Source: Nitrosopumilaceae archaeon (lineage in GTDB: Archaea > Thermoproteota > Nitrososphaeria > Nitrososphaerales > Nitrosopumilaceae). Taken from it: a DNA stretch of 10,493 nucleotides. Position 1 is the stretch's first letter, and every line of letters starts with the position of its first letter. The notes beneath the pieces were generated by a model. The model was not told the DNA's origin and ran no database searches. It saw only the letters and a list, made by a program, of their open reading frames with translations. The stretch lies in assembly GCA_050749225.1 (NCBI GenBank), contig JBOGQR010000051.1, forward strand, positions 1 through 10,493. Direction: 5' to 3'. Position numbers and translations under genes: made by a program. Below, in pieces: positions 1,024 to 9,915 of the stretch.

Positions 1024-4000
1024 TTATTTTATCATTCCATTTGCATACAGGTACTTGACAGCATTCACAAATTCCTGTTCTGTCATTTCATCATTTACAA
1101 CCCACTTGGTTGTCTTCATCATCCAAGATGGTATGTGATTAGCTTTAATTCCAAGTTTTGATAATAGTTCAGAATCTGAAATAGAAGTTGGAGTATAACC
1201 TCCCCATTCTTTTATTACAGTTATCAAATCTGTTTGGTTTGAAGCAGTGGATTGCGGTAGTATTGCAGGCTGTATTTGGATAACTGAGTTATTATCATTC
1301 ATATTTGATCCTACAACCTGCCACGCATTTGATATGTATGTATCCGCAGAATACAAGTCGGATCCCCATGTTCTAACTATGATATCAGATGTTGGCATTG
1401 GATTTGCAAATGTTATATCAACATCAAGCTCAAACTTGCCGTCACTTGTTTGTGTCGGATTGGCAGAGGCAGAACCAAAGAAGTTGTGCGGATCAACTAT
1501 TGACAGTTGCGAGTTTCTATCCCATGTTATCATAGTATCGCTGTCTCCGATGTTTCTTTTGTTCCCATACAGATCAGTGAAGAGTGTTACATGTTGAACA
1601 GATGACGGTCCACTGTCCCCATAAAGGAAAATTTTCAGAACAATCGACTTGCCTGTATGAATCACTTGTGTCTGTACTGGACTATTTTGATAACTGTCAA
1701 GATTAATGCCTGTTCCATTAATTACCAACGGATATCGGTTTGGTGCAAATCCTACTGTAAAGGAAGGTGCAAAGCCAGGTGTCTTGTCACCTTTACTTGT
1801 TGATGGTACAAACAAACCTCCCGGATCAGATATGATACCATTTGCCAGACCATCAGCATCTCCCAAGCCGCCATCTGTTATGCTTATCGTCATAGTATTG
1901 CCGCTTATTCCAGTAATTAGTGAAGAGAGGTTAGTCCAAGTTCCTGTCGAGAATTTCCAATATTGAGCATTTGAAGGAATTGTAGAAGGGAAGCTAAAAG
2001 TTATTGGTACTTTCTGTCCTATGACAAGACCTGTAATCTTCCAAGAAAACAGTCCGTATGGGAATTTTCCTGATGGAATATCTGAGGTTGCAAGGTTTGA
2101 GGTAGATATCGCACTAAGATCAGATATTGAATTTGGTGCAGAGATTCCAACAATGCCAGCATCATTTGATGCAGGTATCAACATTGGGGTTAGCACTGAT
2201 GATGATCCACCATTACTGCTACTAGGACCACTGTATACAATATTTGTATCCACAATAATTCTAATTACTTGAGTAAGTGATGGGTTTTCTTCCACGTATA
2301 CCTGTTCAAAGAGATGTCCTTCATTTGTTACCTCAAAGACAAGATTCCAGTTGTATGATGTAATATCACATGTTTTGTTAAAAGACACCCCCATAGATAC
2401 CCCACTTACAATAGTGTAATTGTATCCACTAACTTTTGATTCAAATTCAGATGAATTCTGGGCAAGCAGTATTGCTTTGGTCTGATTAAACAAAGATGAG
2501 AGTTGTCTGGTTTGCATTTCTAATTTATGCATACAATCTAAGAGGTCAAATGGAGTTGTGGAATTTACAGCGTTTGAGAAATATACTGTGGAATTGGTAT
2601 AATTTTTCAAGAAGAATGTGGAACCGGTGGAATTTGAGAACGATAATTTGGAATTGCTAAAGTTTGAAAGTGATAATGTAGAATTACTAAAGCCTGAAAA
2701 AGACAGAACCGCATTATCAAAATTTGAAAAAGACGGAGACGAATTGCTAAAACCAGAAAGAGACAGTAGTGAGTTACTAAAACTTGAATTTCCGACTATA
2801 AATGGCAACACAAGAGATGGAGAGAGTTGAATGGGATTATCAATAGATTTTATTATATAAATTTGAGCAATATATCCTCCGCTGGTAACAAGTGTCAATG
2901 ATTGTGCTGGATCAAGGGACTGGTGAGGTGTAAGGGTTCCTGAAATCCAAGAAGCATCTATCACATTCCCATTCTTGTCCAGAATATTAACAAGATATGT
3001 AAATGGCTGATTACTATTCTCACGATTTGTGATTTGGGCTGTTATTTGGATTTGTTGATTTGGATAGATTGATGTCAATGTGTTGCCAAGAGAATCTACC
3101 AATCTTGGATATCTAGAGTCCACAGTGCTTGGTGTAGAAGAATTTGTAGTCGTATTTGAAGTAGCATTATAGTTGAATGATAAATTGTTTTGTAGTGTTC
3201 CACCATATTCTACCATGATAGTATAATTTCCCGTTACTCTAAAAAGTGGGCCACCGGCTTTGATGACTGTAGAGAATGTACCATTACTTGTAACATTTGC
3301 TTGCACAATTTGAACAAAATTATGATTTGGATCAAGAATCAATAGTATTGCTGTTCCACCTTGGATAGGTGTATTCACAATACCAGAGAGAGAAACTGGC
3401 GTAATATTATAACTAATAGATCCTCCGCCCTCAACTACTATCGTTGTCGCAAGTGGTTGAGAAAGTGGCAATGGATTATCGATACTTTGTAAGACAAAGA
3501 TTTCAGCAGTGTATGTACCAGACGTATGAGGTGTCCATGATTGTGCTGGAGTGAGTGTCTGATTGGCAGTCAATGTACCAGTAATCCAAGACAGTGATAC
3601 TGTTACTCCATTTTGATCTTGGATTTGCACTAGATATGCAAATGGCTGATCCCTATTCTGATTGTTAGTCAAGTCAGCAGCGATTTGCATCTGCTGTCCT
3701 GCAATAACTGGACTTGTAATTGTATTACCAAACGAGTCAACGATTCTTGGGTCAGATGCCGATACTCTTTCAGGCGGAGGGACAATACCGACTAATGTTG
3801 TAGATGTCAATCTTAACTGATAAGCTGGTGTGTATGGAGCGGGCAGTGTTCTATCTTGGTATTCACCAGTGACTGTGTCACCTTCTGCTACGTGTAATCT
3901 GTTACCTGAAGACTGGAAGTTCGTTGTAAAGTACACTGTACCTTGGAAGATTCCAGTGTTTGATCCAGTTTCAGTCATGTTGAATTTGATACCGCCAGAA

Positions 4001-5370
4001 TCAGAGTCAGACCAAGTATTTGTGTAAAACCTGTCTATTGCATTTGGATTGAGGTTCATGTCTGGATCTACTATTTGTAATACTCCTTGACCGTTAGACG
4101 GATAGCTTGATTCTAACCAAGTTACATTACCGACATTCCAATGAATTGGTGCGAAAGCAACAACCGTTTGGTTTAGAGTTTGAAACGATACAGATATTCC
4201 ATCACTGTCTTGTGATGGAAGTAATCCATCATTTGGTCCAATTCCTGATGGTCCTGTACCTGTTGGCTCTGTACCTTGACCATCAATACCTCCTACACCC
4301 TTGATCAGCGGATTACCTGTTAGAGTGACATAACCGGTGAAGTTACCTGTATTGGGTCCTGTCTCTATTAACTTGTATTGTGATATGGTGTGACCTCTTG
4401 TCGATATTGTTATTTTGCTTGTTGTGGTGTTGCCAATTATATCGATTTTGGTTGGATCAAGATTTTGATCTGGTGCGATTACAGTTATGTTAACCCGGTT
4501 AGTCCACGTGTATGATGTTTTGTCTAGTTCAACTATATTTTGTATAGGCAGTACTTGGGCATTATTAATTACATAAGTTGTTGCATTAAGTCTTAATTGA
4601 TCAGCTTGTGCATGTAGTGCAGGTAACGTTCTGTCGGTGTATTCTCCAATAATCGTGTTATTTCCTGAGGATATATGCAATCTGTTACCTGATGAAGTAT
4701 CATTGGTAAAGTCGACCGTGCCTTGAAAGATTCCTGTATTTGATCCAGTTTCAGTCATCGGTATTAAGACACCTGCAAAATCAGAGTTTGACCAAACTGG
4801 AGTAAAGAACGAATTTGTAGCATTTGGATTGAGATGCATATCTGGATCGATTATCTGTAACACCTTACTGCTTGGTGTATGATCTGAAGGTAACCAAGTT
4901 ACCTGACCAACATTCCATCTGATCATTGCTAGTGAACCAGTTGCATTATGGTCTTGAGTTTGAAATAAAACCGATATACCATCACTATCTTCTGCTGGCA
5001 ATAATCCATCTGTTGGACCGATTCCAGATGGTCCAAGACCACTTGGATTAGTACCATTTCCATCAACACCGACAGGACCTTTTAGGGTTGGATCACCAGT
5101 AAGGGTAACATAACCAGTGAAGATTCCAGTATTTGGTCCTGTCTCCACTAACGCATAAGGTGAAATGGTATTACCTCGGTCAGATATTGTTATTTTGTTT
5201 GTGTCGTTATTGCCGATTGTTTCGATTTTGTTTGAATCAAGATTTTGATCTGGTGCGGTTACAGTAATTTTGACTATGTCAGTCCATGTGTATGGCGACT
5301 TGTCTAGCTCAACTATAGGTGTGATAGCTGCAGCATTATATGTTGAAAATGATGCGATACAGACCAACAC
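1024..5370 (-). CDS. Very large secreted cell-surface protein (adhesin / S-layer-like), multi-domain beta-sandwich repeats, probably heavily N-glycosylated
   Basis: Uninterrupted 1448-codon ORF. N-terminal hydrophobic signal '...IFILSLLAVLVCIASFSTYNAAA|ITP' (extends upstream of the GTG at 5370, see findings). Two 260-aa tandem modules carry recurrent 'ETG(P/S)NTG(I/N)F(T/Q)G' and 'DPD(M/Q)NL(N/D)P' motifs. Duplicated ~110-aa domain ('QPFAYLVQIQDQNGVTVSLSWITGTL' / 'QPFTYLVNILDKNGNVIDASWISGTL'). FSNS low-complexity tract. Domain ending 'TISITDGGLGDADGLANGIISDPGG'. C-terminal 'IPSWMMKTTKWVVNDEMTEQEFVNAVKYLYANGMIK'. Many N-x-S/T sequons throughout. Confidence 0.9.
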   Translation of the reverse strand: MLVCIASFSTYNAAAITPIVELDKSPYTWTDIVKITVTAPDQNLDSNKIETIGNNDTNKITISDRGNTISPYALVETGPNTGIFTGYVTLTGDPTLKGPVGVDGNGTNPSGLGPSGIGPTDGLLPAEDSDGISVLFQTQDHNATGSLAMIRWNVGQVTWLPSDHTPSSKVLQIIDPDMHLNPNATNSFFTPVWSNSDFAGVLIPMTETGSNTGIFQGTVDFTNDTSSGNRLHISSGNNTIIGEYTDRTLPALHAQADQLRLNATTYVINNAQVLPIQNIVELDKTSYTWTNRVNITVIAPDQNLDPTKIDIIGNTTTSKITISTRGHTISQYKLIETGPNTGNFTGYVTLTGNPLIKGVGGIDGQGTEPTGTGPSGIGPNDGLLPSQDSDGISVSFQTLNQTVVAFAPIHWNVGNVTWLESSYPSNGQGVLQIVDPDMNLNPNAIDRFYTNTWSDSDSGGIKFNMTETGSNTGIFQGTVYFTTNFQSSGNRLHVAEGDTVTGEYQDRTLPAPYTPAYQLRLTSTTLVGIVPPPERVSASDPRIVDSFGNTITSPVIAGQQMQIAADLTNNQNRDQPFAYLVQIQDQNGVTVSLSWITGTLTANQTLTPAQSWTPHTSGTYTAEIFVLQSIDNPLPLSQPLATTIVVEGGGSISYNITPVSLSGIVNTPIQGGTAILLILDPNHNFVQIVQANVTSNGTFSTVIKAGGPLFRVTGNYTIMVEYGGTLQNNLSFNYNATSNTTTNSSTPSTVDSRYPRLVDSLGNTLTSIYPNQQIQITAQITNRENSNQPFTYLVNILDKNGNVIDASWISGTLTPHQSLDPAQSLTLVTSGGYIAQIYIIKSIDNPIQLSPSLVLPFIVGNSSFSNSLLSLSGFSNSSPSFSNFDNAVLSFSGFSNSTLSLSNFSNSKLSFSNSTGSTFFLKNYTNSTVYFSNAVNSTTPFDLLDCMHKLEMQTRQLSSLFNQTKAILLAQNSSEFESKVSGYNYTIVSGVSMGVSFNKTCDITSYNWNLVFEVTNEGHLFEQVYVEENPSLTQVIRIIVDTNIVYSGPSSSNGGSSSVLTPMLIPASNDAGIVGISAPNSISDLSAISTSNLATSDIPSGKFPYGLFSWKITGLVIGQKVPITFSFPSTIPSNAQYWKFSTGTWTNLSSLITGISGNTMTISITDGGLGDADGLANGIISDPGGLFVPSTSKGDKTPGFAPSFTVGFAPNRYPLVINGTGINLDSYQNSPVQTQVIHTGKSIVLKIFLYGDSGPSSVQHVTLFTDLYGNKRNIGDSDTMITWDRNSQLSIVDPHNFFGSASANPTQTSDGKFELDVDITFANPMPTSDIIVRTWGSDLYSADTYISNAWQVVGSNMNDNNSVIQIQPAILPQSTASNQTDLITVIKEWGGYTPTSISDSELLSKLGIKANHIPSWMMKTTKWVVNDEMTEQEFVNAVKYLYANGMIK
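2548..2790 (-). repeat. Imperfect ~30-nt coding tandem repeat encoding an S/N/F-rich tract (FSNSxLSLSx units)
   Basis: aa 861-941: 'NSSFSNSLLSLSGFSNSSPSFSNFDNAVLSFSGFSNSTLSLSNFSNSKLSFSNSTGSTFFLKNYTNSTVYFSNAVNSTTPF'. Repeated DNA units such as 'gaattgctaaa' / 'gaattactaaa' / 'gagttactaaa'. Dense N-S-S/T sequons. Confidence 0.7.
3787..5325 (-). repeat. Tandem in-frame duplication, period exactly 780 nt (260 aa), two copies inside the large CDS
   Basis: Copy 1 is aa 16-275 (4546..5325) and copy 2 is aa 276-528 (3787..4545). The 'VELDK' Val codons lie at 5313 and 4533, exactly 780 nt apart. Long near-identical DNA stretches, e.g. 'tttgatccagtttcagtcat' in both 4739-4758 and 3959-3978, and 'caagattttgatctggtgcg' near 4458 and 5238. 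Confidence 0.85.
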
Positions 5371-5403
5371 AGCAAGTAATGAAAGAATGAAAATTTTGTT
5401 TAT

Positions 5404-5423
5404 GTTTTCAACCTCTATATAAT
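5404..5423 (-). promoter_or_regulatory. Candidate TATA-like box (minus-strand 'attatata') and SD-like GAGGT upstream of the large gene
   Basis: The minus strand reads '...ttaatattatatagaGAGGTtgaaaacATAaacaaaatt'. GAGGT (5415..5411) lies 7 nt upstream of an in-frame ATA (5403..5401). The A/T-rich box is at 5416..5423. No experimental support. Confidence 0.3.
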
Positions 5424-5616
5424 ATTAACAAGTTGTATAAAAGATAATAATTAAAAAAGTTAGATTCATTCATAATTTTAGAATCAATTTGTGTTAGACC
5501 CTCTTACAGGTTTGAACTCTATTCGTCTATAAATTAACAGCAAACGAGTTTATCGACAAAGAGTAAAAATGGTTTACCCCCTTTTACACACAAAGATATG
5601 CTGTTGTCGTAAAACC

Positions 5617-6618
5617 TTACTTAGAGAATTTATCAGAGGATCTATTGAGTTGTGGGAACCGGTCAACGGCTGTAGCAGATTCGCCTCCTCCAATTATGTT
5701 TCCCGTCTTTGAATCAACAAAATATGTAAAAGAAAATATTTTCCAATTTCCAGACGTAATCCAAACAAATTGTTTAATTTTTTCCGGTTGTAAATATTTT
5801 TGATTATAATGATTTATTACTATTGTTTGATTAAATTTGATAGCATTATGGTTTTCATCTAAAGTATAAAGCAGAAAATGTGGAATATTGTCTGTGGTTG
5901 TGAGATATCTTAAAAATCCCAGAATTGCTCTAGTATCATAATGGTTTGTATCATTTCTAAATTTAATTACCCCATCAGAAGCTTGCTCTTCGGATACGAA
6001 TTGGTTCATTGATAAATTCCAATTACGTTCTACAAGACGTTGTGCTGTTTCCTGACTTACACAAGCAGGAAATTCCTTCTCAGATTTTATTATAATGATA
6101 AAACTCTCTTTACATTGAATATCTTTAGCAGAAATTCCAGATTTGAATTGTTTTAATGGTAATGACATTGGTGGCTTTTCTACCGCAAGACATTCTTTTC
6201 CCTTCTCATAAGGGTCTGGGTGTACATCAAGTACCAATCCATATTCAATTTCAATTTCTTGAGTGTGACCCATCGGTACATCAAAGTGTAAAATTCTTCC
6301 ATTGTCAGTAAACTGTTCATAATAATTAGTTGGCGTCTCTCCATCCAAGAATACAACTGAATGATCTGGTTTACAATTAGAATCTGCAACATACCATACT
6401 TTCTTTGGTATGTTTAGAGTAATAGAGCCATCTTTGTCCATAGAAAAATTGACAATTATCACAGGCAAGTTACCTTCGATGTGAATCCTGTCAATAGTAC
6501 CTCCTTCTATTTGGTAAGTGATTTTTGGTTCAGAATTTTTAATATCGGCAAAAACACTTGGAGATAAAATAATTACAACTATTAGTGATATTATGATTAT
6601 ACAAAACAAGTAATTCAT
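5617..6618 (-). CDS. Secreted hypothetical protein (333 aa) with beta-sandwich-like N-domain and a two-Cys 'PLKQFKSG...C...PACV...ERNW' module
   Basis: ATG start at 6618. Signal peptide 'MNYLFCIIIISLIVVIILSPSVFA|DIKN'. The module 'LPLKQFKSGISAKDIQCKESFIIIIKSEKEFPACVSQETAQRLVERNW' is shared with the 6960..8399 product. The N-domain 'ITYQIEGGTIDRI...GSITLNIPKKV...VVFLDGE...GRILHFDVPMGHTQEIEIEYG' is paralogous to modules in the neighbouring genes. Confidence 0.85.
   Translation of the reverse strand: MNYLFCIIIISLIVVIILSPSVFADIKNSEPKITYQIEGGTIDRIHIEGNLPVIIVNFSMDKDGSITLNIPKKVWYVADSNCKPDHSVVFLDGETPTNYYEQFTDNGRILHFDVPMGHTQEIEIEYGLVLDVHPDPYEKGKECLAVEKPPMSLPLKQFKSGISAKDIQCKESFIIIIKSEKEFPACVSQETAQRLVERNWNLSMNQFVSEEQASDGVIKFRNDTNHYDTRAILGFLRYLTTTDNIPHFLLYTLDENHNAIKFNQTIVINHYNQKYLQPEKIKQFVWITSGNWKIFSFTYFVDSKTGNIIGGGESATAVDRFPQLNRSSDKFSK
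6107..6150. repeat. Perfect 44-nt inverted copy of 7470..7513 (inside the two-Cys module of two paralogues)
   Basis: The reverse complement of 6107..6150 is 'caattcaaatctggaatttctgctaaagatattcaatgtaaaga', which equals 7470..7513 exactly. Flanking codons are diverged. Confidence 0.9.
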
Positions 6619-6698: not shown

Positions 6699-6761
6699 CA
6701 ATTTATCAGTAATCTCTAATAGCAATGTTATTTCATAACAAACACGAAAAGACTACATCTT
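6699..6761. repeat. Left arm of a 63-nt inverted repeat covering the TATA-like box, a conserved ATG and the first ~12 codons of the + strand gene
   Basis: 'caatttatcagtaatctctaatagcaATGttatttcataacaaacacgaaaagactacatctt' against the reverse complement of 9916..9978: 57/63 identical, with a perfect 29-nt core (6703..6731 = rc 9946..9974). Weaker similarity continues upstream (ctgtaagaatcc 6681-6692 vs ctgtaggatcc, rc of 9989-9999). Confidence 0.9.
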
Positions 6762-6959
6762 TCAATAATTATAATTCTCAGTGGAATTCTTGTTATTACA
6801 AACAATCTGGCATTTGCCGATAATACGAATCAACACGTAATTATTGATGGAACTATTTCTCAAGAAGGCTGTAATGTCATAAATGGTACTATAACACAGG
6901 CAACTGACATACAAAACACAACAATCCAGTTATGTAATTATCATGACAAACACTTCAAA

Positions 6960-8399
6960 TTGTCTGCAACAACCGGTTGTATCTTAGTCGGTGTTGGGAA
7001 TACAAAAGATCCTGAAACAGGACACAAGTATGCATTTAATGTCATATGTGATGTACCAACTACATGTGGTCTAAAAAACTCATGGGGTGATCACAACATG
7101 GGTAATACGGATTATCTTGATGCAACATCAGTTAATGGAACTCATTTCATTATTACCACAAATTATGGATGGGGTGTGTGTGCATCAGAATCATACAATG
7201 AACAAGAAAAAAAAGCAACTATAATTGTAAACGGTTTGTGGGATAATGATACAGTTGTTAATGTACTAATTCCAAAAGTGCTTCTTGGAAATACATTGGT
7301 AACAGTGGATGAGAAGAAAATAACTCCTGATATCATCGATCATCACCCTTCTAATACCACTCTAGTTTGTCCATTGTGCTATTATGAGATGAATATGCAT
7401 CTGCCTTTTTCATCTGCATCTAAAAAAATTGAGATTGGAGCCCAATCCATTCCTGATACTCCGCTAAAGCAATTCAAATCTGGAATTTCTGCTAAAGATA
7501 TTCAATGTAAAGAAGGTCTTGTATTGATAACTAAAACATCAGACAATTTTCCAGCTTGTGTGAAAACACAAACAGCACAGAAGCTTGTTGAACGTGAATG
7601 GGGTTCTATGGTAATTCCCAATGGTTTATTCTATAATGGTACAGGAAGGTCTACTAAAGGAACAATGGTAGTGGATAACACAAACTACACTGTAAACTAT
7701 AGAATTACGAATGCTACGATTCTAAATGTTAAGGAGGATGTGCAAGATAAAGGTCTGATGGTCTCGATAAAGGCAGATGACATGGGGGTGTTAACAATAA
7801 CTATTCCAAGATTATTATTTAATTTTGATATTTCAGATGCACAATGGCAGAGTTGGCATATCCCTGGTCACTACTGGGCAACGAACGATGGCACACGCAA
7901 CGAACAATTCCAAGAGATTAACACTACCTCAACCGACAGAACTTTTTTTATCCACTTTTCAAAGGGAACTAAAGAAATGGAAATTTTTAGACCACTGCCG
8001 CTCATATGTTTGTCTGGTAATACTATGATTGACACCCCAAATGGTGCTACGAACATAAAGGAATTAAAAGTTGGAATGCGTGTGTGGACATTAGACGATC
8101 ATGGTTACAAACAGTCGGCAGTAATTTTGAAGACACAGAAAACCCAAGTACCTTCAATGCACACTATGGTTCACATTGTTTTAGTTGATGACAGAGAAGT
8201 ATTTGCATCCGCCAAACATCCAACAGCAGATGGCAGATTAGTAGAAGTATTGAAAATTGGAGATATTCTTGATAATACAAAAATTAAAACCATTGAACTT
8301 ATTTCGTACAATGAAAACTATACTTATGACATTTTGCCATCTGGTCCAACAGGATTCTATTGGGCTAATGGCATTCTAATTGGAAGCACCCTAAAGTAA
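6960..8399 (+). CDS. Secreted Cys-rich protein with two beta-sandwich-like modules, a two-Cys PLKQ...PACV module and a C-terminal Hint domain (coordinates use the first canonical start, TTG 6960; the true start is probably upstream)
   Basis: The frame is open from 6723. Between 6723 and 6960 it encodes a textbook signal peptide, 'NTKRLHLSIIIILSGILVITNNLAFA|DNTNQ', but has no in-frame ATG/GTG/TTG. The mature part contains 'TPLKQFKSGISAKDIQCKEGLVLITKTSDNFPACVKTQTAQKLVEREW', '...GVLTITIPRLLF...DRTFFIHFSKGTKEMEIF', then the Hint domain. TAA at 8397-8399. Confidence 0.85.
   Translation: MSATTGCILVGVGNTKDPETGHKYAFNVICDVPTTCGLKNSWGDHNMGNTDYLDATSVNGTHFIITTNYGWGVCASESYNEQEKKATIIVNGLWDNDTVVNVLIPKVLLGNTLVTVDEKKITPDIIDHHPSNTTLVCPLCYYEMNMHLPFSSASKKIEIGAQSIPDTPLKQFKSGISAKDIQCKEGLVLITKTSDNFPACVKTQTAQKLVEREWGSMVIPNGLFYNGTGRSTKGTMVVDNTNYTVNYRITNATILNVKEDVQDKGLMVSIKADDMGVLTITIPRLLFNFDISDAQWQSWHIPGHYWATNDGTRNEQFQEINTTSTDRTFFIHFSKGTKEMEIFRPLPLICLSGNTMIDTPNGATNIKELKVGMRVWTLDDHGYKQSAVILKTQKTQVPSMHTMVHIVLVDDREVFASAKHPTADGRLVEVLKIGDILDNTKIKTIELISYNENYTYDILPSGPTGFYWANGILIGSTLK
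7470..7513. repeat. Partner of the perfect 44-nt inverted repeat (6107..6150)
   Basis: Base-by-base comparison. Encodes 'QFKSGISAKDIQCK' in both genes. Confidence 0.9.
8007..8396 (+). other. Hint (Hedgehog/intein-like, BIL-type) autoprocessing domain, 130 aa, at the extreme C-terminus
   Basis: Block-A-like 'CLSGNTMIDTPNGATNIKELKVGMRVWTLD' with Cys1 at 8007-8009. Block-B-like 'FASAKHP' ((T/S)-x-x-H). C-terminal strands 'YTYDILPSGPTGFYWANGILIGSTLK' followed by the stop. No His-Asn and no +1 nucleophile or extein. Confidence 0.75.
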
Positions 8400-8432
8400 T
8401 AATGAAAATTATAATGAATTTGGAGAGAAGTG

Positions 8433-8517: not shown

Positions 8518-9915
8518 CTAACTAACATGAATTACATGACTAAATGTATTACCGCCATCTGTACTTATCCTTAGAAATATTCCATGAATATCTCCTCCAC
8601 TATCTCCTGCCAAATAGATCTTGTCACCTGACGATACTATCTGTAAATTTCTGATTCCAACATAATCTCCGTTGTCTTGATTTAGATCAATAGGAACACT
8701 GAAAGTTTGCCCGCCATCAATACTCGTTGTAAAAAATATTTGTTTATGAAAGACTGGTGTTGTTGAGCTCTGTTCCCAAATAGCATACAGTTCATTTTCA
8801 GATAATATTCCTACAGGAGAAAATGGAAGAGCCTCCTTAATGTATTGAGTAATATTGATTGTTTTATCAAAGGTGCTTCCACCATCAATGCTTTTTCTCA
8901 ACACAATTTGCTCACCATTGGAATCATCACTGTTCCACTTTACGTAAACGCCATTTTGTCCATATGCAAGAAGTTGAGAAAACCATGTGCTTGCAGTTCC
9001 ATTATTCAATTTTGTCATCTTATCAAAAGTGAGTCCTCCATCTATGCTTCTTGTAAAAAACAGATCATTTCTGGTCTTGTTAGCTCCTTCAACAAGAACA
9101 TACACTTTATTACCTGATGCTGCAATTGATGCGTCTGATAGATAGATGCTACCGGTCAAATTTAGTACGCTGCTAAAGGTTTGACCATTGTCTGAACTTT
9201 TCCTAAAAAGTACACCAGTATACATGCCTTGGCTGATTTCCTTGCCTAGTCCAAGCGTGTAAATATTTTTGCCAGAAATTGCAAGTTTTAGAAAATTCCG
9301 ATCAGAGTATGGCTCTCCATACAGGTCAACAGTTTTTCCAAACGAATTACCGTTATCAAAGCTTGACCTGAGGATAATGCCATTATTAATTGGATAACCG
9401 TTACTGTCTTTGTTTGCATTATACAATATAGCGTGCAAATCATTCTCATTGAGAAATATCGAGGTACCAGCTGAAATCCCATCACCATCCTTTAGTAGAG
9501 TGACATTGCCAAAGGTAATTCCGCCGTCAATACTTTTTCTGATAAAAGTGTGTCCACCTCCAAAATCATCCCATGTCAAGTATAATGTATTATTTTTTGC
9601 AACTATTGCTGGGTGATAGATAACATCATAACCACGAGTCAGATTAATTATTCTGTTAAAAGAGAATCCGTTATCAGTACTTGTTCTGAGCAGAACAGAA
9701 TTATTTTTAGATGTTGAATTTTCTTGTTGCCATAACACATACACATGGTTTCCAGACACTGCCACTTGAGTGATAAAAGCTGTCGTTGAAGGAGGCTTAG
9801 ATATCCCCCCAATAGGTAAATGTTCCTGTTGAAACGGCAATATTGGTTGTGCAGATTGTGAAAATACAATAAAAAATATTATCGTTAAAGCAACTCCAAT
9901 CGGAAGCGCGATCAA
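8518..9915 (-). CDS. Secreted or membrane-anchored BNR/Asp-box repeat beta-propeller protein (sialidase-fold-like, function unknown)
   Basis: Eight S-x-D-x-G-x-(T/S)-F Asp-boxes: STDNGFSF, SIDGGITF, SFDNGNSF, SSDNGQTF, SIDGGLTF, SIDGGSTF, SIDGGQTF, STDGGNTF. They are spaced ~45-60 aa apart, each preceded by a 'G(N/K)xVYVxW'-type strand. N-terminal hydrophobic segment 'IALPIGVALTIIFFIVFSQSA|QP'. The start shown is TTG 9915; the frame is open up to 9954. Confidence 0.9.
   Translation of the reverse strand: MIALPIGVALTIIFFIVFSQSAQPILPFQQEHLPIGGISKPPSTTAFITQVAVSGNHVYVLWQQENSTSKNNSVLLRTSTDNGFSFNRIINLTRGYDVIYHPAIVAKNNTLYLTWDDFGGGHTFIRKSIDGGITFGNVTLLKDGDGISAGTSIFLNENDLHAILYNANKDSNGYPINNGIILRSSFDNGNSFGKTVDLYGEPYSDRNFLKLAISGKNIYTLGLGKEISQGMYTGVLFRKSSDNGQTFSSVLNLTGSIYLSDASIAASGNKVYVLVEGANKTRNDLFFTRSIDGGLTFDKMTKLNNGTASTWFSQLLAYGQNGVYVKWNSDDSNGEQIVLRKSIDGGSTFDKTINITQYIKEALPFSPVGILSENELYAIWEQSSTTPVFHKQIFFTTSIDGGQTFSVPIDLNQDNGDYVGIRNLQIVSSGDKIYLAGDSGGDIHGIFLRISTDGGNTFSHVIHVS

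Follow-up and report, generated by a model that had tools for sequence, protein, structure and literature searches.

Hint domains that act without splicing offer chemical precedents for the protein described here. They include the cholesteroylation of Hedgehog proteins and the N-terminal cleavage for which B-type bacterial intein-like (BIL) domains are known (PMC7765530), as well as the BIL2 domain of Tetrahymena BUBL, whose Hint thioester conjugates its N-terminal flanking domain to an amine, that of lysine (PMC8616854). A-type BIL domains are defined by a C-terminal His-Asn pair (PMC7765530), and C-type BIL domains are described, in a passage of PMC9185962 that cites Dori-Bachash 2009, as associated with the PPS-1 domain in predatory bacteria. 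Both Bürglin 2008 and Dassa & Pietrokovski drew attention to secreted proteins of bacteria (Myxococcus, Stigmatella, Photorhabdus and others) that carry a Hint-like domain at the C-terminus (PMC2362128). Here we analyze a stretch of 10,493 nucleotides (the window) from a Nitrosopumilaceae archaeon (contig JBOGQR010000051.1 of assembly GCA_050749225.1) and, within it, the forward-strand open reading frame (ORF) at 6960..8399, whose 479-residue product ends in a Hint domain. With a probability of roughly 0.6 (0.62), we read this product as a modular, all-β, surface-type protein that ends in a cleavage-only Hint autoprocessing domain. The reading rests on fold, residue conservation, terminal position and family distribution, from which we infer the export of the protein, the chemistry, its redox gating and what becomes of the thioester.

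We show that window positions 8007..8396 (+) encode a genuine Hedgehog/intein-type Hint domain of 130 amino acids. The last 130 codons read CLSGNTMIDTPNG...ASAKHPTADGR...TYDILPSGPTGFYWANGILIGSTLK and are followed by stops; the resemblance to Hint domains goes far beyond chance. An AlphaFold2 model of the domain, based on a 64-sequence family alignment, has a predicted local distance difference test (pLDDT) score of 95.4, and Foldseek matched it in the PDB with a probability of 1.00 and template modelling (TM) scores of 0.70-0.79 to mini-inteins, BIL domains and Hedgehog-C, with E-values of 2e-8 to 1e-5 for the gp41-1, DnaB and DnaE inteins, BIL2 (6y75), BIL (2lwy) and Hedgehog-C (1at0). The profile of the same alignment retrieved Hint-superfamily structures only from the PDB, namely CatC (1.6e-6), the gp41-1 intein (3e-6), the Clostridium BIL 2lwy (2e-3) and Hedgehog 6tyy/1at0 (4e-3 to 9e-3). 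In a phmmer search of the PDB, residues 32-124 matched the intein fragment CatC (6dsl_B, from a consensus atypical split intein; E=4e-5), with window ...YTYDILPSGPTGFYWANGIL opposite ...YLYDLLNVGEDNLYYTNGIV. Among family models, Pfam Hint_2 (PF13403) matched the domain with E=1e-5 and 26.3-27.4 bits against a gathering score of 28.4, in an alignment confined to block A (model positions 1-43 or 1-45 of 147); it was matched by 62 of the 64 aligned members, always in block A only, and some of these pass the gathering score. Pfam Vint (5e-4) was likewise below its gathering score and limited to block A, and TIGR01445 intein_Nterm reached 2e-3. Pfam Hint PF01079 gave no match in the window protein and weak ones in five of the 64 relatives (best E=4e-5), and there was no match to PT-HINT PF07591. 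An earlier reading made from the letters of the sequence alone (the sequence-only reading) had called the final 130 residues a Hint domain and had named profile searches and structural superposition among the ways to check it; both agree with the call, and the NCBI name of the protein is already 'Hint domain-containing protein'.

Residue conservation, counted over 208 family sequences aligned to the family hidden Markov model, identifies which parts of the intein machinery are retained. The predicted nucleophile of the N-S acyl shift, Cys1 (TGT, 8007..8009, +), is present in 206 of 206 aligned members and aligns with position 1-2 of Hint_2 and TIGR01445; it opens block A, which in the window reads C-L-S-G-N-T-M-I from 8007 onward, and it forms with the preceding Ile the junction at 8004-8009 (ata tgt). 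Block B is the TxxH-type motif S-A-K-H-P-T (8208..8225, +; S-A-K-H itself at 8208-8219), which aligns with SEEHlfPT of the gp41-1 intein and whose Ser (207/208), His (208/208), Pro (207/208) and Thr (192/208) are conserved. Block F, T-Y-D (8322..8330, +; Asp at 8328-8330), aligns with YLYDL of CatC and is equally constrained, with Thr and Asp in all 208 members and Tyr in 200. Every family-invariant residue is intact in the window copy.

The C-terminal residues tell the opposite story. G-S-T-L-K (8382..8396, +) replaces the ...H-N and +1 residues of inteins: in the phmmer alignment, intein ...NGIVVHN stands opposite window ...NGILIGS, so that window I-G-S lies at V-H-N of CatC. The catalytic C-terminal set of inteins (block-F His, penultimate His and terminal Asn) thus reads Thr, Gly and Ser in the window. 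Across the family, the first position is Thr in 203 of 208 members, the second is variable (Gly in 140 of 208, otherwise Lys, Ala or Asp), and the third is Ser in 206 of 208, followed by Thr (205), Leu (201), usually Lys or Arg, and the stop. This is the expected pattern of a Hint domain that would carry out an N-terminal acyl shift and would be unable to splice or to cleave C-terminally, a logic shared by Hedgehog-C and B-type BIL domains (PMC7765530). The sequence-only reading had correctly identified Cys1 at Ile|Cys, the S-A-K-H motif and the terminal strands and had seen that the C-terminal His-Asn is missing, and its proposal of N-terminal thioester chemistry without splicing fits the invariance of Cys1, His and Asp across the family. 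Its further statement that a +1 Cys, Ser or Thr is absent stands as regards the C-extein, of which there is none, and fails as regards the residue, since the +1-equivalent position in the window holds Thr (T-L-K-stop).

As had also been stated, the ORF stops at the end of the domain. Three consecutive in-frame stop codons (TAA TAA TGA, 8397..8405, +) follow, and the next gene (8518..9915) lies on the opposite strand, convergent with the Hint gene; therefore, no C-extein or toxin module lies downstream. These features bear on two readings that we regard as effectively excluded. The less credible of the two is a canonical splicing intein. Mini-inteins, including the atypically split ones (Cat, gp41-1), are indeed the closest relatives by both sequence and fold, with blocks A, B and F/G aligning residue by residue, and the Thr at the +1-equivalent position would suit an intein. 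However, splicing is impossible because the C-extein, the His-Asn pair and the block-F His are all missing, the frame ending at T-L-K, and because the domain does not sit inside a conserved host protein: its host is no conserved housekeeping protein, and the N-terminal partners vary. The other is that the protein is the remnant of a polymorphic-toxin or BIL-type variable protein whose released C-terminal toxin or variable module has since been lost. PT-HINT and BIL domains do occur in variable secreted proteins (PMC7765530), and the window resembles a surface-protein gene island with integrase-like genes nearby. Yet to end directly behind xSTL(K/R) is normal for the family (121/143) and no sign of truncation, the family as a whole lacks the residues for C-terminal cleavage, and, unlike in PT-HINT polymorphic toxins, there is neither a toxin module nor an immunity gene, the only downstream gene being the convergent one, with BNR repeats.

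We propose that the precursor would be exported and then fold, whereupon an N-S acyl shift at Ile349-Cys350 (8004-8009), assisted by the block-B Ser and His and by the block-F Asp, would generate a thioester. An external nucleophile would resolve it, detaching the 130-residue Hint domain and leaving an ectodomain of ~396 residues with a new C-terminus. With other residues in place of those for Asn cyclisation, and without a C-extein, splicing could not follow. Given activity, simple hydrolysis or thiolysis, leading to maturation or release, seems somewhat likelier than transfer to a specific acceptor.

This arrangement bears several parallels with described systems. As in Hedgehog proteins with their Hog C-terminal domain (1AT0), a secreted N-terminal cargo precedes a Hint domain near the C-terminus, for which use of the N-terminal thioester only is predicted; Cys1, the block-B T/SxxH and the conserved Asp are present, His-Asn is absent, and the folds superpose with a TM score of 0.75. 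Unlike Hedgehog, the window protein ends at the Hint domain, without a sterol/adduct-recognition region, comes from a prokaryotic host and has negligible similarity to PF01079. B-type BIL and Hint_2 domains share with it their occurrence in variable secreted prokaryotic proteins and intein N-terminal motifs without a C-terminal His-Asn, and Hint_2 is its best Pfam match. That match, however, is sub-threshold and does not extend beyond block A, the C-terminal two-thirds of the domain being closer to the mini-inteins CatC and gp41-1, and the family to which the window protein belongs has an xSTL(K/R) end and a C-P-I-C1 junction of its own and is strictly terminal. From A-type BIL domains it is set apart by Gly-Ser in place of His-Asn. 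Tetrahymena BUBL BIL2 (6Y75/6TMM) is among the best structural matches (TM scores 0.77-0.79), but it has a C-terminal Asn (the crystallised form is the mutant N143A) and a downstream ubiquitin-like domain, is eukaryotic and cytoplasmic, and is 17-18% identical. The proteins of Bürglin 2008 resemble ours in that a signal peptide and a conserved, cysteine-containing region precede a C-terminal Hint-like domain (PMC2362128). We considered whether they are the same group and rejected this, since the motifs differ, block A there reading ...SCMAEGTQV... (PMC2362128). The strings YDIL and HPTADG, typical of our family, are absent from the supplementary alignments of PMC2362128, in which archaeal members are not reported, and our literature search found no paper linking Hint domains with Thaumarchaeota or the candidate phyla radiation (CPR).

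The uniqueness implied by the sequence-only reading, which was aware of no characterised archaeal example, was overstated: the window protein is one member of a family of more than 1000 clusters in both prokaryotic domains. The 130-residue query alone returned 140 relatives, all ending in ...TYDILPxGxTGxYWANGILxGSTL(K). An exhaustive profile search over 1.84 billion cluster representatives (clusters at 50% identity) returned 1015 proteins at E <= 1e-30 and 1598 at E <= 1e-10; the top matches are 146-862 residues long (median 351) with the Hint domain at the extreme C-terminus, and the window protein, listed as P0121, matches the family profile with E=6.5e-59. The protein ends 1-5 residues after xSTL in 121 of 143 cluster representatives. 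The family forms a Hint subfamily that is uncharacterised, strictly terminal and very widespread, with the signature C-P-I-C1 ... HPTADGR ... TYDILP ... xSTL(K/R)-COOH. A genome scan with one genome per species found 241 loci. The best 80 of these 241 are distributed over Nitrososphaeria (24 loci), CPR/Patescibacteria (23), Chloroflexota (13), DPANN (5), metagenome-assembled genomes (MAGs) labelled Gammaproteobacteria (5), unclassified bacteria (3), Bathyarchaeota (2), other archaea (2), Actinobacteria (2) and Bacteroidota (1), mostly in soil and groundwater MAGs. Some of the 'Gammaproteobacteria' MAGs encode CPR-style MNQKGF... N-termini, so that mis-binning is possible.

Identity to the window domain is 49-65%, bacteria included, which indicates transfer between domains or strong constraint, or the two together, and suggests that the Hint module may have moved horizontally between domains repeatedly. 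A hydrophobicity count, which is crude, found an N-terminal signal peptide, transmembrane anchor or lipobox in 109 of 131 members; the types are cleavable signal peptides in Thaumarchaeota, transmembrane anchors of the MNQKGF... type in CPR and lipoboxes in Chloroflexota. A conserved partner gene was not found across 84 loci, an all-versus-all BLAST of their ORFs returning the Hint gene itself and antisense ORFs only, and the Hint unit therefore appears to be self-contained. In the minimal architecture (locus L008, 5575-6420), a transmembrane anchor and a Ser/Thr-rich linker of ~90 residues lead into the Hint domain, with no further domain; a spurious antisense ORF is called over the repeat in this locus. 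The cultured Candidatus Nitrosotalea devanaterra, which has a closed genome (LN890280.1), encodes a 434-residue protein with orthologous architecture (locus L030, 3089-4393): a signal peptide, a β domain, WING-49, a small domain and then ...CPLC|LSENT...GILVESTLK.

The residues just before Cys1 are conserved almost as strongly as the Hint domain itself, in an N-terminal region that is otherwise variable. The family consensus is C(-3)-P(-2)-I(-1), with Cys-3 in 125 of 136 members, Pro-2 in 195 of 208 and Ile-1 in 184 of 208, which creates a native CxxC with Cys1. According to a passage of PMC3922620 that cites Callahan 2011, a disulfide between Cys-3 and Cys1 acts as a 'redox trap': it prevents N-terminal cleavage and occurs natively in the MoaA intein of P. 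abyssi. Because this trap has been established experimentally, we infer a native CxxC gate for the family, in which Cys-3 of most members probably controls the reaction through a disulfide with Cys1. At the window junction, F-R-P-L-P-L-I (positions -7 to -1; 7986..8006, +), the last three residues are P-L-I, and Leu at -2 occurs in the window copy alone among 208. The window copy would thus be ungated, since P-L-I lacks Cys-3, or possibly less efficient, and the window gene reads as a slightly atypical member of its family.

A second peculiarity of the window copy concerns its start. The annotated TTG at 6960 gives a real 479-residue ORF, and a start there would cost the protein its signal peptide along with 47 residues at the beginning of a conserved module (module A, see below). 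The frame itself is open for 550 codons from 6723, after a stop at 6720, in DNA of 36% GC, and there is no in-frame ATG, GTG or TTG between that stop and 6960. An ATG occurs out of frame at 6726. Homologues begin MKTLHLSII..., whereas the window frame reads T-K-R-L-H-L-S-I-I, with an ACG codon (6744..6746, +) opposite the ATG of the paralogue locus L011 in a DNA alignment. The segment that follows in the frame translation, KRLHLSIIIILSGILVITNNLAFA (6747..6818, +), resembles a signal peptide with predicted cleavage before DNT and aligns with the N-terminal signal peptides of homologues P0124, P0128, P0129 and P0135; it lies outside the annotated 479-residue ORF. The earlier description of the protein as 'secreted' must therefore be qualified: a signal-peptide-like segment exists, yet upstream of the annotated TTG and without a canonical start codon. 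Secretion of the window protein is uncertain because the ancestral ATG reads ACG, and the ACG could possibly be a single-base consensus error of the MAG, an unusual start, or a sign of recent inactivation.

It is against this background that one should consider whether the window copy is non-functional or non-catalytic, either as a recent pseudogene that has lost its start or because the Hint domain, without cleaving, has only a binding or structural role as a folded module at the C-terminus. The loss of the ancestral ATG with no alternative canonical start before module A, the junction lacking the family's Cys-3 and Pro-2, and the existence of decayed copies elsewhere (a remnant without block A in locus L002) would all be in keeping with this. 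On the other hand, long-standing decay is disfavoured because the 550-codon frame is still open at 36% GC and all invariant residues are intact, the ACG could stem from a MAG assembly or consensus error, and the invariance of a triad-like set in about 200 sequences argues for catalysis at the level of the family. We therefore consider such loss or absence of activity quite unlikely.

Upstream of the Hint domain, the cargo of the window protein consists of three parts. Module A, an all-β ectodomain (6819..7460, +), is 39-64% identical to homologues P0122-P0131. It is followed by a WING-49 domain (PLKQFKSGISAKDIQCKEG...ACVKTQTAQKLVEREWG; 7461..7604, +; NCBIfam NF058652, 83 bits, E=1e-23) and by module B, a β-rich segment ending in ...FSKGTKEMEIF (7605..7985, +), with weak similarity to the C-terminal modules of P0132 and P0144. 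No Pfam family matched the cargo, and its AlphaFold2 model is all-β (pLDDT 73), with uninformative Foldseek matches (TM <= 0.18). In P0125-P0131, module A directly precedes tails of the form ...IEIGAxSIPEFPxAIPVLLI..VFYR.., which match PEFG-CTERM/PEF-CTERM below cut-off (E 6e-5 to 0.03); in the window protein, TIGR04296 and TIGR03024 (PEFG motif, transmembrane helix, basic tail) gave no match. The sequence-only reading had proposed that a sorting or anchor signal normally follows the module next to the Hint domain in related archaeal proteins. This is shown for module A only, whose relatives have PEFG/PEF-CTERM-like ends; a dedicated homologue search with the '...KEMEIF' module found nothing. 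PEFG-CTERM and PEF-CTERM signals thus occupy in the module A paralogues the C-terminal position that the Hint domain occupies here; unlike the Hint domain, a PEFG-CTERM is a short peptide of three parts that depends on a separate enzyme for its processing, and the window protein is without its motif. Functional equivalence of the two is put forward only as a hypothesis.

These paralogues nonetheless raise the question of whether the thioester serves for attachment. The Hint domain could act as a 'single-turnover sortase', in which an envelope nucleophile (a lipid head group, a glycan or an amine of an S-layer protein) would attack the thioester, so that the C-terminus of the ectodomain would become covalently tethered in place of the PEFG-CTERM/archaeosortase route of the paralogues. 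The two well-studied Hint domains whose N-junction thioester serves a purpose other than extein ligation both transfer it, Hedgehog to cholesterol and BUBL BIL2 to lysine (PMC7765530, PMC8616854). Module A paralogues end in PEFG/PEF-CTERM-like anchors just where the window protein continues towards the Hint domain, and thaumarchaeal members, with their cleavable signal peptides, have no other anchor. Moreover, the conserved motifs HPTADGR, LPSGxTG and STL-COOH are not known as needs of the acyl shift, and these extra motifs, the 50-65% cross-domain identity and an unusually conserved domain surface suggest recognition of something conserved. Several observations speak against auto-anchoring of this kind: there is no sterol/adduct-recognition region after the Hint domain, no conserved partner gene was found in the 84 loci, the envelopes of the hosts are unrelated (S-layer archaea, CPR bacteria, Chloroflexota), members from CPR, DPANN and Chloroflexota already have N-terminal transmembrane or lipid anchors, and the anchor comparison is valid for module A only, not for the Hint-adjacent module B. 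We regard auto-anchoring as a serious but improbable alternative. A broader version, which we hold still more tentatively, would make the xSTL(K/R) Hint family a self-contained, enzyme-free protein-ligation device of single-membrane prokaryotes, gated by the Cys(-3)-Cys1 disulfide or relayed through a Cys(-3) thiolactone warhead in most members. In ammonia-oxidising archaea, DPANN, CPR and Chloroflexota, its thioester might, with the same low likelihood, pass secreted ectodomains by their C-termini to a nucleophile of the envelope or of a target.

Returning to the preferred reading of a cleavage-only autoprocessing domain, a number of points weigh against it. Plain self-cleavage does not explain why S-T-L is near-invariant at the extreme C-terminus. 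The domain is also unusually well conserved, with 50-65% identity between archaeal and bacterial copies, which may reflect a further constraint, for instance an acceptor or a partner. In the window copy, the non-consensus residues at -3 and -2 could hinder the acyl shift. The signal peptide of this copy has no canonical start codon, and the TTG start would give a truncated, cytoplasmic protein. Finally, some relatives have no signal peptide, such as the short Hint protein P0005 (167 residues), and not all members are obviously secreted.

Should the proposed chemistry hold, the Hedgehog design, with a terminal Hint domain maturing a secreted cargo, would have in this family an abundant example from prokaryotes and archaea, and the family would bear on the origin of Hedgehog-type autoprocessing as well as on the enzyme-free maturation or attachment of surface proteins in organisms with minimal envelopes (ammonia oxidisers, DPANN, CPR). 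If the ligation device were real, prokaryotes would possess an equivalent of Hedgehog lipidation and a means of anchoring proteins other than by sortases or archaeosortases. The engineered 'redox trap' of inteins would have a widespread native version in the natural C-P-I-C junction, and a compact, cleavage-only, extracellular Hint domain of 130 residues could serve protein engineering, for example in making C-terminal thioesters. The idea is directly testable, since the cultured Ca. Nitrosotalea devanaterra encodes the orthologous architecture.

Several apparent variants of the family turned out to be artefacts. A one-residue N-extein ('MC...') was rejected as a gene-call error in the one case examined (P0102), the frame in locus L008 running upstream to its transmembrane anchor. 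A split Hint domain had been suggested by relatives of exactly 107 residues, starting ~24 residues into the domain, and by the best PDB match being the C-fragment of an atypically split intein; we discarded this idea, attributing the 107-mers to gene-call or assembly artefacts. They are 45-82% identical to one another, and several are the C-termini of full-length proteins (P0055 = P0021, P0029 ≈ P0004). A 79-residue form in locus L005 results from frameshifts in a long-read assembly, a metagenome contig on which many genes, at 1062-3636 and 5236-6240 (Prenyltransf, FBPase_glpX, Hint), are split by frameshifts. Short 'truncated' family members in databases should thus be read with the warning that they are often assembly artefacts. 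The 107-residue remnant in locus L002 (5960-6324), with block A deleted, is by comparison a genuine case and shows that family members do decay. This locus and L006 (6001-6504), the setting of the short Hint protein P0005, are syntenic thaumarchaeal loci near radical-SAM/glycosyltransferase genes, and a 433-residue gene adjoins both, ferric-reductase-like in L002 and without a recorded Pfam match in L006.

The surroundings of the Hint gene are those of a contig resembling a surface-protein gene island, with a Pfam Phage_integrase gene just beyond the window (L001 2-829, 11952-13400). At the left edge of the window, an ORF at 169-849, partly outside the window, ends in ...HALRHIGAHYW...LIGGW...Y, which we take to be tyrosine-recombinase-like; it had no significant Pfam match. 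Positions 1024-5370 (-) encode a secreted giant protein of 1448 residues with two long internal duplications, weak DUF1425/Ig-like matches and a low-complexity region of SFSNS/LSFSN repeats. Between it and the Hint gene lies a divergently transcribed gene for a 333-residue protein (5617..6618), which shares with the Hint gene an inverted repeat of 137 nucleotides (6019-6155 versus 7465-7601, 75% identical); the repeat corresponds to the WING-49 segments of the two genes, and an identical PLKQFKSGISAKDIQCKE stretch occurs in both. The convergent gene downstream (8518-9915, -) encodes an N-terminally anchored protein of 465 residues with BNR/Asp-box sialidase-like β-propeller repeats (BNR_2, E=2e-9).

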